Assembly (NCBI GenBank): GCA_951406725.2
Contig: OX597838.1
Span: forward strand, 5,456,001 to 5,520,000
Direction of reading: 5' to 3'
Source: Octopus vulgaris
Taxonomy: Eukaryota
Length of the DNA stretch: 64,000 bases
The notes below the pieces were generated by a model. The model had not been told where the DNA came from and did not search any database. It worked only from the letters and a program-made list of their open reading frames with translations. Positions within the stretch are counted from its first letter, which is position 1. Every line of letters starts with the position of its first letter. The position numbers were made by a program, and so were the translations under genes. Of the stretch, positions 12,944-61,374 are shown piece by piece.

Positions 12944-13053
12944 TTAATTTATTATATAGAAGGAGTTCTACAGGACTAGTACTGTTTCCTGAAGATTTCT
13001 CTTGAATGAAACAGTACTAGTCCTGTAGAAGCTCCTTCTATATAATAAATTAA
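12944..13053 (+). ncRNA. Long hairpin whose loop and 3' arm carry a hammerhead-like core (5' stem I lost)
   Basis: Arms 12944-12988 and 13008-13053. CTGAAGA (12989), T-TTC-TCTT-GAA-T, GAAAC (13008), AGTACT palindrome. Confidence 0.5.
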
Positions 13054-13125
13054 AAAAATATATATATATATATATATATATATATATAACTGTAAATATA
13101 ATATGTAACAATTATTCGGTAGCCA

Positions 13126-13188
13126 AGATAAAACTCTGAGTTTCGGATGCCGAGTTGGAAATCCACAACACCATCTCTTCGGTTATCT
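13126..13188 (-). ncRNA. Type I hammerhead ribozyme motif, CCGAAGA variant
   Basis: Minus strand reads AGAUAA-CCGAAGA-GAUG...CAUC-C-GAAAC-UCAGA-GUU^UUAUCU, with a 6-bp stem I. Confidence 0.6.
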
Positions 13189-13401
13189 GACCATCTGAAA
13201 AACGTTTTGTACAATACGGGTGAAAGCTCAATAATTTTCTGTGTCTACTATAGCTTCAGGCCAACTAAAACCTTGTGAATCAATTCAGTAAAGGAAAAGC
13301 GAAAGAAGCCAAACATCTATGTGTGTGTATGCATGTCTGCACGTGTGTATATATGTATGTAAATGCGTCTATGTGTAAGTATACATACATACATATATAT
13401 C

Positions 13402-14040
13402 GGCCAAAGCCTTGTGAGTGCATTTGGTAGACGGAAACTGAAAGAAGCCGGTCGTATATATATATATATATATATATATATATATATATATATATATATA
13501 TATATATTTCTTTACTACCCACAAGGGGCTAAACACAGAGGGGACAAACAAGGACAGACAAAGGGATTAAGTCGACTACATCGACCACGGTGCGTAACTG
13601 GTATTTAATTTATCGACCCCGAAAGGATGAAAGGCAAAGTCGACCTCGGCAGAATTTGAACTCGGAACGTAACGACAGACGAAATACGGCTACGAATTTC
13701 GCCCGGCGTGCTAACGTTTCTACCAGCTCGCCGCCCTGTATGTATATGTATATATATATATATATATATATATATATATATATATATATATATATATATA
13801 TGTATGTATGTGGGTGTATATGTTTGTGTACCTGATTTGTCACCCCCCCCCAACAAACATTGCTTGACAACCGATGCTAGTGTGTTTACGTCCCCGTAAC
13901 TTAGTAGTTTGGCAAAAGATACCGATAGAATAAGTGCTAGGCTTACAAAGGCTAAGTCTTGGGGTCGATTCGCTCGACTAAAGTCGGTGCTCCAGCATGG
14001 CCGCAGTCAAATGACTGAAACAAGTAAAAGAGTAAAGAGA
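13402..14040 (+). mobile_element. SINE family A (5'-truncated), interrupted in its (TA)n tract by a family B SINE
   Basis: Core at 13402-13455 and tail at ~13820-14040. Confidence 0.85.
13505..13735 (-). mobile_element. SINE family B (tRNA-like head, Nin/Deu-type central domain), nested
   Basis: Reverse complement of GGCGGCGAGCTGG..GACTTTGCCTTTCATCCTTTCGGGGTCGATAAA..GTAAAGAAATA. Confidence 0.9.
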
Positions 14041-56850: not shown

Positions 56851-59800
56851 ACATGTTTGTGGAGTGCTCAGCCACTTGCACGTTAATTTCATGAGCAGGC
56901 TGTACTGTTGACCAGATTAACTGGAATCGTCAGTGGAGTGCGAACTATTTTGTTATGATCAGTTTGCTTCATTAGAGCTGATCTGAAGTGACAATATGTA
57001 ATTCTGTTGTACGGAATAATTTCGTTTCATGCATATGAAATAGTATATTAATAGTATATTAGAAATAGTATATTAATTTCAAGAATAATTTTCAAGGGAT
57101 TCAAACTTCAGACCGATGAACAACCGACAAAATGTGCATCAAATACAAACTTCTAACAATAAAGTTCGCTTGTTTTGCAGCTGATCAGAATTATATGGCA
57201 TTCTTCCTTTTATGATTCATGCAACCGGAATATGAACCGGAATAAATATTCTGCGAAAATTTTTTTGCCCAGTGGAACTTCTACGTTTAGGTTAATATTT
57301 ACTCCATTAATATTTTACTGCCATATATTATCCACGGAAGCTGAAGTGCTTCTATGGCTTTGGTAGCAATAAAATTGTGTGCAACTTGTACGATCTTTCG
57401 TAGTAGGCGAACGTCATTTGCAAAGGACAAGGCTTCTGGGGCAGTAAAAATATATGCATTTAGGGGAGTTAATATCTTTCTCAATGTAAATTCATGCTTT
57501 TATAATATAACGGTTTCAAGTCGTTTCCTCCTGAAATGAATATTCTATAGTTAGAAACTACTGACGCACCTGCAATGCGCAAATGTTGGGTAATGTCCAA
57601 AATAATTCGATCACAAATGCTAATGCAATAACGGGGCTCCCCCAAGGAATCCTTGGGTAGCGTTATTAGAAAGGCTGCATAGTTTGGGAATCAGGGATTT
57701 TGTCCAAGTCGAGTCACTATTCCTCCACATTAATAACTCACATGTCTAGTATTATAGGTAAATGATAAGCATATCGCAGAAAAATAATCGCAATACAGGG
57801 TGCTCAAGCTGAGACATTCGGCAGGAGACCTAGGGGTATATATATGTATAACTATATATATATATATATATATATACAAACTTTAGAGGACTGACCACTA
57901 AAAGTGGCCAGCCTGTATGCTAGATATAGAAGTCGAAATCGTCCTCTAACTTTTGTATGTAAAAAATTTTTAATCTTCGGATTTTTAAAAGAAATATGCT
58001 AGCCCACTGGTTTTAATTGATTAATATCAATTTCTACCCTTATTTAATTTTATGCACCCCCCACACACATATATATATATATACATATGTATATGTATAG
58101 GTTAGGGTGCTACACTCATGATCACGAAATCAAGGTTTCATTTCTTAGACCGAGTGGTGCATTTTGTCCATGAAAAAAATCGCTTTATTTCCCTTTACTC
58201 GACGATCATTTGGACACTTGAGGCGTGGTACAGTCTACACCTGTTCAGACAGCGTGGATTTTGAAGGTAAGATTGAGACAATGTGCAGCTTGAACCATGA
58301 ACATTTTTATCACTATAAACAAAATCATTTGTGCCGGTCGTACAGCGGAATCTAAAAGCTAAATGCGTATATATGTGTATGCGCGTCTGTGTGTGGTGTT
58401 TGCGTGTGTGTGTGTAAAAGTAATCATACATCATAGATATCTCTTCTAGATGTATGTACTTGCCCTCCGTCCACATCGCCTACTTCAACCACAAAAAAAC
58501 AGACGCTACTACTATTACAACTACTACTACTACTACTACTACTACTACTACTACTACTACTACTACTACTACTACTACTACTACTACTACTACTACTACG
58601 CAATAATAATAATAATAATAATAATAATAATAATAATAATAATGATAATAATATTTGTTAGTTATTTATGTTAATGTCAAGATGTCTCCCGTAAAGTATC
58701 TACGATCTAGTAGTCTTCATAAAGCAAAATTTAGTATTTGAGAGATTTCTGAGCGGTCTTGTTTATTCATACACGGACATACGCACACACACATATAAAG
58801 GACAATAGATATACATATATAATACAGACATACATATATGCATATATATAATACAGACATACATGTGTATGCATATATATATATATATATATATATATAT
58901 ATATATATATATATATGTGCATACATGATTGGTTCAATACATTATAGAATCTAATGAGAAAACGCCGTACATAAAAAAATATATATGTGTGTGTGTGTGT
59001 GATATTGTAAACGTCTGAATAAGATCCATTGGAGGAACACGAAGGGGAAAAGTGTTTGTCAATGGATTTATTTCAGAAATGAATAATCATAAGAATGCTA
59101 GATTCAAATGAAAGAGGTTTCTTGTTTTCTGACATTTATAGCCATAAACAAACCTATATTTTAAACCCTGCATATATATATATATATATATATATATATA
59201 TATATATGTATATATATATATATATATATATATATATATATATATATATATATATATATATATATATATATATATATATATATATATATATATATATACA
59301 TATATATATTTATGTACGTATGTATGTGTTTGTGTATGTATGTAATTATATATATGTTACACACACACATATAATTACATTACATGTATTTATACGTATA
59401 TATATCTATACATATGTATATATATGTATATATGTATGTACATATATATATATATATGTGTGTGTTTGTCTGTGTGTGAATGAAAATATATGCATGAATA
59501 CATTGTATACATATTTCCTTTACATTTAATTCTACATAATTTGTACTTCAGTTATATATGTATATATATATATATATATATATATATGTATATATATATA
59601 TACATATATATATACATATGTATATACATATATATATATATACATATGTATGTATATATATCTATGTATATATATATATATATATGTATATATATGTATA
59701 TATATATATATGCATATATATGTATATATATATATATATATATATATATATATATATATATATATATATATATATTCACCAGGTGGTACTATTAAGTTAG

Positions 59801-60499
59801 ACATGACCTGAGCCAATAATGGCCGAAACCTATCAAAGTATCAAAGTACATACATACATATATATGTATATCTACTTATACACGTTTATGCATTAATGTA
59901 CGTACGTATTGTTAAGAGTAAAAGTGCACGCAGATGTGTCAGAAACAGGTGCCAACATCTCTCCATTTATCGCCTTTTCCTTGATAACGTGTTAATTTTT
60001 CGGAAGTTTTTAATTCTAGAGATTATCTCTCCTTCTTAAACTGATCTGGTTGAAACCACCAAATATTAATCGTGTCATAACCTATTGAGACTGAGCTAAT
60101 TTTCGTAAAAATTACCGTTGTGGTTTCACTCGAACTTTTGCATCGTAATTTCCTTGTGCAGTTTTATACGTGACACTAGCGGCTTATGAGGAGAGCAATT
60201 TATGGCTTCATGTTACGCACATAATAAGATTAATTGCTCTGCATGTCAAAACAAGTAATACTTCTAGTTTACTGTTCTAACGAAAACTATACTCGAAATT
60301 TCCTGGAGAAAGTCAAAATTTATGTGATACACTAAACGCAATATAATCAGATATATATATATATTTAGTTTTACTTTCACGGTATCCTCAATACACACAC
60401 ACACACACACACACACACATATATATATATATATAATTTTATGAGTGAACGCCCTGCATCCTTTTCCAAGTAAGTTTTATCTTAATAACTCAAGTGATT

Positions 60500-60964
60500 A
60501 TGGACTAAACTGAAATGTAACTAATCTGTACACCCTCTGATTACTCACGGATGGTGATTCGGCGCTTTCCGCACTCATTTGCACGCGCATCTGCGCAGTC
60601 TTTCTCAGTTCTGCTGGTTGCAGTTCTCCCAGAATGTTCGTCTGCATCGATATTTTTTTCGGTAATATTTGAAACCGCTGAACCATTCGTACACTGGTGT
60701 GCGATTCATACACTCATCCTCATACACTTTCTGCAACTTTGCGCAGGCCTTTTTAGAAGGTATCGCCATGACAACTTCCTCTGACATTTTCCCTGCTCGC
60801 ATCATACACCACCTACCATCCTTCCAAGCGGAAGTGAGTTAATACGCTAAAACTTTATGCACATAGCAGAGTTCAAGCTCAACCTTTACCAAACGGGTTT
60901 ACTGTGCGTGATTTAGCTTCGTTACTATGGCAATCTCCTAGATACTTATTCATAAGACTTCGTA
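60500..60964 (-). mobile_element. Mariner transposon 5' remnant (HTH region, disrupted)
   Basis: KLQKVYEDECMNRTPVYEWFSGFK matches the mariner HTH; TIR-like end TACGAAGTCTTATGAATAAGT on the minus strand. Confidence 0.75.
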
Positions 60965-61329
60965 CACACACACATACATGGTAGTTGTAAAATCTAAAGA
61001 AGAGATCAGAGTAGTAACTATACAAATAAATAAAGTTAATCGTCACATCAAAACAGCTGTTCTAAGTTTCTATGAGATGAACCCCATGTAGATCTTCCGC
61101 ATAAGCAGCTGATAGAAGATCTGCCTGGAGTTAAACTAGTAGTAACACCCACTTTGATGTGGTGATTTACATTACACGTTGTATAAACATATATATATAT
61201 ATTAATAAAAGGAATGCCAACCTTGTCTGATTTTCACGTTTTATTTACAATCTTATAATGATATAATATAAGATAATAAAATAAAATAAAATAAAATAAA
61301 ATAATAGAATGTTAAATGTTCATTCTGAT

Positions 61330-61374
61330 TGAACTAGTACTTTCATGCATTAAATTCTGCAATCTTCAGGTTCA
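61330..61374 (-). ncRNA. Minimal type I hammerhead motif with canonical core
   Basis: Minus strand reads UGAAC-CUGAAGA-U-UGCA-GAAUUUAA-UGCA-U-GAAA-GUAC-UA^GUUCA. Confidence 0.7.

Follow-up and report, generated by a model that had tools for sequence, protein, structure and literature searches.

Penelope-like elements (PLEs) of the Hydra clade carry hammerhead ribozymes and prefer (TA)n targets, and an octopus family, Hydra-1_Obim, is listed among them (PMC8557442). Among the papers listed by our literature searches this was the only one dealing with PLE hammerheads of octopus. What the hammerhead does in PLEs, and what serves as their template, are described as open questions (PMC8557442, PMC3846280), both partly settled in vitro for one Poseidon element of the anole: its protein nicks AT-rich DNA, reverse transcription starts at two internal sites that define a tail, uncut RNA is the main substrate and hammerhead mutants still insert (PMC11167929). 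PLEs are also described as keeping introns in their genomic copies, a class tendency rather than a strict criterion; to account for the retention, copying from an antisense template has been proposed (PMC3846280). Here we analyzed a stretch of 64,000 nucleotides of the Octopus vulgaris genome (contig OX597838.1, positions 5,456,001 to 5,520,000; “the window”), in which a preliminary description had listed 15 hammerhead-like sites in (TA)n microsatellites. These motifs are very probably hammerhead-bearing terminal repeats of PLEs from three clades, present as short insertions, direct or inverted, that for the most part sit in (TA)n.

Each of the 15 positions was parsed after reading both strands, many motifs lying on the minus strand, and siblings were sought in the whole genome (2.8 Gb, 227 contigs). 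The searches for 40718, 42766, 33281, 61330 and 49138 gave 223-1,905 candidates each, those for 40945 and 49562 gave 58 and 70; 40 candidates of each were scored. Siblings of 12989, 24187, 30594 and 35414 were present among loci fetched for other reasons (fetched loci bear L numbers). Thirteen of the listed sites lie in repeat families with the type I hammerhead layout, two fall, and one site, 49562, was added. The resulting families are eleven (A to I, L and M; Table 1). Family G, known from 24187 and two sibling loci of which neither is intact, is likely a hammerhead family.

Open reading frames (ORFs) for reverse transcriptase (RT) or GIY-YIG endonuclease (EN), a link that the preliminary description had proposed to look for, are tied to seven of the eleven families: a broken RT plus EN in A, D and E, the EN part only in B, H, I and M. 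Upstream of family A lies an untranslated region of about 1.2 kb, then a Hydra endonuclease with the CxCX5C linker. Family B continues into Hydra-type sequence in L140, family E into a Hydra-type ORF in L232 that is 31% identical to P0001 (the intact protein described below), and family M runs into a Hydra-type EN in L252; linker and EN motifs are present in all three. The ORF upstream of family D has DKG, CX4CxxC and a CCHH-type EN, read by eye, with a GIY-YIG Pfam match above cut-off. Family H is preceded in L297 by a CCHH-type GIY-YIG domain whose Pfam score is below cut-off, and family I by a Poseidon-like endonuclease, read by eye. Judged from these motifs, the clades are Hydra (A, B, E, M), Neptune-type (D, H) and Penelope/Poseidon-type (I). 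The likeness of the Hydra proteins to published families was judged by eye and motif; an assignment of family A to Neptune was dropped on seeing DKT, RWK and CxCX5C. Between its EN stop and the hammerhead, family I has a (TAA)n run and a tRNA-like segment whose motifs resemble A and B boxes, both recognized by eye. This segment may be an internal Pol III promoter. The idea that family I is a tRNA-headed short interspersed element (SINE) was ruled out, since its copies extend upstream into the endonuclease.

A complete element is known from the Hydra-clade family A2. The family A endonuclease peptide used as a query gave 150 scored matches, 18 of them in a 727-codon open frame. The eight A2 ORFs that were fetched encode a 711-aa protein, in which the RT is followed by the GIY-YIG endonuclease, and show 0-23 differences per 2,133 nt, two of them, on different chromosomes, being identical. 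In five of the eight loci a pair of hammerheads lies 3.34-3.36 kb apart. In L124 the pseudo-long terminal repeats (pLTRs) are two 728-bp repeats, identical at 724 of 728 positions and separated by 3,341 bp; a canonical hammerhead lies just before the end of either repeat. The A2 ORF starts about 200 nt downstream of the hammerhead. The A2 protein P0001 has RWK, DKT, YRDD, CxCX5C, a GIY-like box and also CxxC and CxH, whereas neither DKG nor CX2-5CxxC is present; RWK, DKT, CxCX5C, CxxC and CxH are diagnostic of the Hydra clade (PMC8557442). P0001 gave no match in Pfam or the PDB, and its Atlas neighbours carry HTH_animal, GIY-YIG and RVT_1. The A2 ORF is covered by contigs of four runs guessed to be RNA; having no strand, ends or GT-AG joint, they were not used. 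A2 is a very young Hydra family and a candidate active element.

The insertions have the expected anatomy of PLEs. Inverted 5'-truncated arms, pLTR direct repeats with hammerheads and an optional tail are all present, and the partial inversions noted in the preliminary description were seen as inverted arms or pairs in several window insertions. Each family has two alternative 3' ends, with or without the tail, 70-80 nt apart. To be bounded by (TA)n, as first claimed, is weak alone: a TA run is no more than 200 bp away for 46% of non-simple positions. Counting instead (TA)5 within 40 nt past the family 3' end, TA is abutted by 22/22 ends in family C, 14/14 in E, 24/35 in A (tail ends) and 15/22 in D, against 3.6% of random positions and 6/50 ends of a SINE. 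In a later set of family C arms the figure is 60/66. Family I, with 0/6, is not TA-flanked. TA next to the short-end anchors is less frequent (B 6/17, C 15/32, E 8/13, F 5/10), partly because the short ends of these families run on into tails; anchors for family A short ends (38/91) and for H (12/69) were too loose and were set aside.

We then compared pairing within family B. In 41 of 42 copies, one with an insertion being left out, 88.8% of 902 cells are paired, versus 36-54% when the pairing is slid. Double changes occupy 21 cells versus 12.5 in shuffles, and 0/500 shuffles reach 21.

Several points weigh against the assignment to hammerhead-bearing PLEs. The fetched loci gave no linked ORF for families F, G and L; in family C a Hydra-type RT piece is held by one chimeric arm only, and at five intron-retaining C loci the sequence preceding the donor, covered for up to 1 kb, is free of ORFs. 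The clade calls for D, H and I come from motifs by eye, with no tree, and Nematis is possible for D and H. The double changes of family B lie at four pairs versus 5.6 expected (472/500 shuffles reach 4) and trace to one subfamily split, thus to few independent events. Finally, in 8 of 9 sequences the hammerhead monomers fold no better than shuffles.

The lack of an ORF for C, F, G and L also bears on the alternative that the short copies propagate themselves without being autonomous, either as solo retrozymes or as PLE derivatives resembling SINEs, and have short masters of their own that PLE proteins mobilise in trans. Non-autonomous PLEs and monomeric retrozymes are already published, and the young H and short C copies share narrow 5' ends and are 95-100% alike. 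However, the 5' ends of A, D, E, I and M are graded and run into ORFs, and the window has no tandem units. The narrow ends of family H are open to another reading: the search query contained the TA flank, favouring one 5' end, while 20 H copies met without targeted search have varied 5' ends and L297 reaches the endonuclease. We hold such masters to be a possible explanation of the short copies, though an unlikely one; family C taken alone may be non-autonomous.

Within the reading as PLE ends, family C provides a record of the template. Five long C loci (L328-L332) have a GT-AG segment of 1,303-1,329 bp (995 in one rearranged copy), with a GTAAGT donor and a T-rich AG acceptor, which ends 13 nt before the hammerhead core. 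The window copy at 33087-33362 and most short C copies join the flanks of this intron exactly. When the 72 arms are counted by genome coordinate, 59 prove to be spliced, 8 (at five loci) keep the intron acceptor and 5 are too short to tell, but the C loci were found with spliced queries, so this proportion is biased and is not a genome-wide ratio. Among the 59 spliced arms, 53 start 17-36 nt upstream of the donor, five at less than 10 nt and one at 76 nt, although one query extended 65 nt further. No GT-AG split was seen in eight other families. The intronless C copies are likely made from spliced RNA; we found no report of mass intron-lost PLE copies in the open-access literature. In L327 a chimeric family C insertion joins an AT-rich Hydra-type RT piece, 39% identical to P0001, to a short first exon, a fusion that suggests a template jump at the RNA 5' end.

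Alternatively, the intronless copies could descend from one DNA deletion through AG|GT microhomology rather than from repeated copying of spliced RNA. Donor and acceptor do share AG|GT, and the splice junction is known here from genomic DNA alone. But the removed 1.3 kb has donor and acceptor signals and an exact junction. Spliced arms occur, moreover, in both indel lineages that hold intron-retaining arms (18 and 16 spliced arms beside 4 and 3 intron-retaining ones), and a third subfamily adds 20 spliced arms. The clustered arm starts above the donor also resemble the Penelope element of D. virilis, in which the intron lies 46 nt past the start site, leaving a 46-nt first exon (PMC2377424). 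A single deletion is thus improbable.

Two abundant families have altered cores. U4 is C in 57 of the 66 family A copies with the core aligned, the young A2 being canonical. In family H, A6 is found in 0/20 of the copies met by chance and in 0/27 of those parsed among 30 searched copies; N7 varies freely and the rest of the fold is preserved. All copies of a sister family (9/9) have A6. Low activity is described for A6C, and reduced but sufficient activity for U4C (PMC3088659). Our search of the hammerhead literature returned no paper on A6U, which would be expected to weaken catalysis. Taking families C and H together, we lean towards a reading in which the template copied many times in family C was sense leader RNA, spliced but uncut and extending from the start site as far as the tail, while the A6U family spread widely. 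As part of this same reading, the family C leader copies would contradict the rule that PLEs keep introns and the antisense-template idea.

The occurrence of hammerheads was measured against shuffled sequence, a check that the preliminary description had itself put forward, together with a search for multicopy families; the latter gave multicopy siblings for most sites. A first strict descriptor returned 40730(+) and, once stem I was allowed to be 3 bp long, 49562(-) as well; 100 shuffles gave 0.03-0.07. It was relaxed twice, each version having its own shuffles, and the final type I descriptor permits a bulge or mismatch at the stem II base and a longer helix III. With segment-wise dinucleotide shuffles that held microsatellites in place (n=200), four window sites pass (12989, 13182, 40730, 61369) versus a shuffle mean of 0.03 and a maximum of 1. 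CUGANGA and GAAA boxes, an NUH site and three helices with stem I open are present at these four, two of them (13182, 40730) with U4C; siblings of other families also pass, and the pass list across loci comprises 81 distinct hammerhead sequences. We also took 40 evenly chosen 10-kb stretches of the genome (400 kb), where the same descriptor gave 22 matches in nine stretches, seven of them in one tandem array, versus 0.2 in 15 shuffles. The sampled loci hold at least a dozen more hammerhead families that are not in the window (L186, L194, L199, L210, L216 and others).

Chance matches from fold-back inversions in AT-rich, microsatellite-dense sequence, an explanation that applies to 47653 and 59808 and that gains from the dense TA runs and from a stem I at 12989 partly formed by an inversion junction, are refuted for 13 of the 15 sites by the shuffles and by family searches that find multicopy families with published-type Hydra layouts, and as a general account are barely credible.

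The sites first described fared unevenly under this descriptor. Of eight said to fit the type I topology, three pass (13126, with its core at 13182 on the minus strand; 40718, core 40730, plus; 61330, core 61369, minus) and five are damaged (29785, 33281, 42766, 42853, 49138), yet each of the five has passing siblings. Of seven said to be decayed, 12989 passes outright; 24187, 30594, 35414 and 40945 are decayed members of repeat families; 47653 has no second copy, and at 59808 lies the 3' end of a LINE-like repeat. That stems differ while pairing is kept stands in so far as stems are wholly different across families with the same layout; the list itself had been selected for pairing. The proposed density of one motif per 5-8 kb is reached only if decayed relics are counted, the descriptor giving one per 16 kb in the window and, for dispersed motifs, one per 27 kb in the genome sample. 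The window (33% GC, 151 runs of (TA)6 or longer, about twice the genome sample) is therefore within about twofold of the sample and near the genome norm; its two 10-kb neighbours had no motif with an earlier descriptor. Extrapolation from these clustered counts gives a rough genome load of about 1e5 hammerhead motifs. The general view of a dense, diverse, mostly TA-targeting system of ribozyme-bearing retroelements in this genome is upheld, and the system is the known one of PLEs, neither retrozymes nor a new kind. That annotation overlooks it is borne out by the intact Hydra protein without a Pfam match and by the window's Rfam scan, in which no hammerhead model appears among 150 of 595 matches. 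One Rfam match over the gathering cut-off, WsnRNA46 at about 42765-42915, is the family B inverted pair, a hairpin artefact, and the other matches among those 150 are to microsatellites and hairpins.

Table 1. Coordinates of PLE ends and related features in the window (and, where an L number is given, at other loci). Core, GAAA box and triplet positions are given in strand order.
Feature	Position	Strand	Details
Family F, two inverted arms between TA runs	12877..13058	+	core 12989-12995, GAAA 13008-13011, GUA triplet end 13027; no ORF linked
Family B (Hydra-clade PLE) end	13089..13209	-	core 13182-13176 (U4C), GAAA 13144-13141, GUU triplet end 13132; 3' end at TA run
Family G inverted-arm relic between TA runs	23976..24309	+	core 24187-24193, helix III lost
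Family A (Hydra-clade PLE) end	29760..29855	-	core 29826-29820 (U4C), stem I mismatch; short inverted tail piece; TA both sides
Family H (Neptune-type) decayed end	30590..30716	+	core 30594-30600; family core CUGUNGA (A6U)
Family C short copy	33087..33362	-	exact splice junction 33340/33339; core 33326-33320, GAAA 33298-33295, GUA triplet end 33287; stem II mismatch; tail reaching TA run
Family I (Penelope/Poseidon-type) relic	35149..35499	+	decayed hammerhead, core 35414-35420; main arm includes an eroded tRNA-like segment; inverted arm at about 35149-35224; not TA-flanked
Family I tRNA-like segment	35230-35420; L062, L188, L190, L196, L213		
Family A (Hydra-clade PLE) end with tail, complete hammerhead	40699..40870	+	core 40730-40736 (U4C), GAAA 40747-40750, GUA triplet end 40759; 87% identity with the intact L124 element over pLTR and leader
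Family M (Hydra-type EN in L252), hammerhead 3' half	40886..40967	+	first core box lost
Family B head-to-head inverted pair	42744..42925	.	minus core 42822-42816, GAAA>GAAC; plus core 42858-42864, decayed arm with two core changes
Family E (Hydra-clade PLE, young) end	49103..49386	-	core 49211-49205, long stem II with mismatch, GUA triplet end 49142; inverted tail piece 49342-49386; TA both sides
Family L, old hammerhead family, new to the list	49473..49619	-	core 49562-49556, GAAA 49539-49536
Family D (Neptune-type PLE) end, complete hammerhead	61202..61491	-	core 61369-61363, GAAA 61344-61341, CUA triplet end 61335; TA both sides
Intact A2 element	L124:2505-6574		711-aa ORF between two pLTRs

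Two candidates were rejected. The one at 47653..47700 (+) is without helix III or stem I and its genome search matched only itself. The other, at 59775..59850 (+), is the 3' end of a LINE-like repeat with no CUGANGA core in five siblings. A sibling in L064 directly follows the end of an ORF, without Pfam match, which we take to be LINE-like. PLE family ends are often fused or nested at one TA run, as for A then M at 40699-40967 of the window and also in L084 and L041. A 114-bp repeat forms an inverted pair (29537-29650 and 30465-30578, 80% alike, about 900 bp apart). At 2008-3651 (+) a 547-codon open frame, Cys/His-rich in its first half and without Pfam match, is likely a host exon.

The complete copies are continuous across the predicted cleavage site. 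Because every one of them spans it, the template was uncut, or re-ligated. The insertions would then be likely products of target-primed reverse transcription of uncleaved element RNA. To go by published PLE biochemistry, the GIY-YIG domain would nick AT-rich DNA, and the RT would begin copying a little past the hammerhead, at either of two internal sites. Its synthesis would usually stop early and often fold back, leaving short inverted stubs. For the short copies of family C the copied molecule was probably the spliced sense 5' leader, read up to the start site. If ribozyme cleavage is, as seems likely, dispensable for insertion, altered cores such as U4C and A6U could spread.

Much of this is already published, namely the tails, the inverted arms, the preference for (TA)n targets and the presence of hammerheads in pLTRs. 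We describe new families of a known PLE class, which Repbase or Dfam may already hold. The new details are the spliced-leader copies of family C, the altered cores of two abundant families (U4C; A6U) and a young intact Hydra family. Intron-lost beside intron-retaining copies, and altered-core families beside canonical sisters, are in vivo records that bear on the two questions of template and hammerhead role. If the reading is correct, they allow the need for cleavage by PLE hammerheads to be tested in a natural setting, and the near-identical intact Hydra elements, on the scale of dozens, provide a candidate active element for biochemistry. For annotation, the hammerhead motifs mark PLE stubs concealed among TA repeats.

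With the Hydra PLEs of PMC8557442 the families share RWK, DKT, the CxCX5C linker, CxxC and CxH in an EN without CCHH, a 3' hammerhead with helix III ACTC-N-GAGT or ACAG..CTGT and A, U or C at position 17, (TA)n targets, an inverted 5'-truncated arm and a tail. The helix III types, bulges and U17 sites of families A, B and F are as in the hammerhead table of that paper, and the layout of family A is close to the Hydra-2_Amil row. Protein and hammerhead sequence, compared by eye, differ from Hydra-1_Obim; the unit is about 3.35 kb rather than less than 3 kb, pLTRs are clear and intact copies near-identical, and the Hydra rows of File S2 show no U4C cores, unlike here. The minimal hammerheads of Neptune, Penelope and Poseidon (PMC4209133) are likewise dispersed single motifs from truncated PLEs with opposite-strand pairs 100-700 bp apart, a bulged base at stem II, a palindromic helix III and an intron end near helix I. 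Their numbers are 4,000-9,000 in coelacanth and Xenopus versus about 1e5 per genome here, from a 400-kb sample and with another descriptor, and the A6U family and intronless copies are absent from the main text sections compared. Poseidon_Ac of the green anole (PMC11167929) has the same two 3' ends defining a tail, AT-rich targets and insertions with an uncut hammerhead, but its ORF begins inside the hammerhead, unlike that of A2, and its tails are 30-40 nt. Non-LTR retrozymes (bioRxiv 10.64898/2026.07.22.740005, whose available text does not mention octopus) have type I hammerheads related to PLE pLTRs. Their hallmark, tandem hammerhead units without ORF, is absent from the window, where copies are single or inverted, and seven of the eleven families run into PLE ORFs. 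We found it only in L183, where an array at 2745-4763 (contig C1) has a period of 359 bp, 5.6 copies with a canonical GUC hammerhead each and two inverted units: by this organization it is a typical non-LTR retrozyme.

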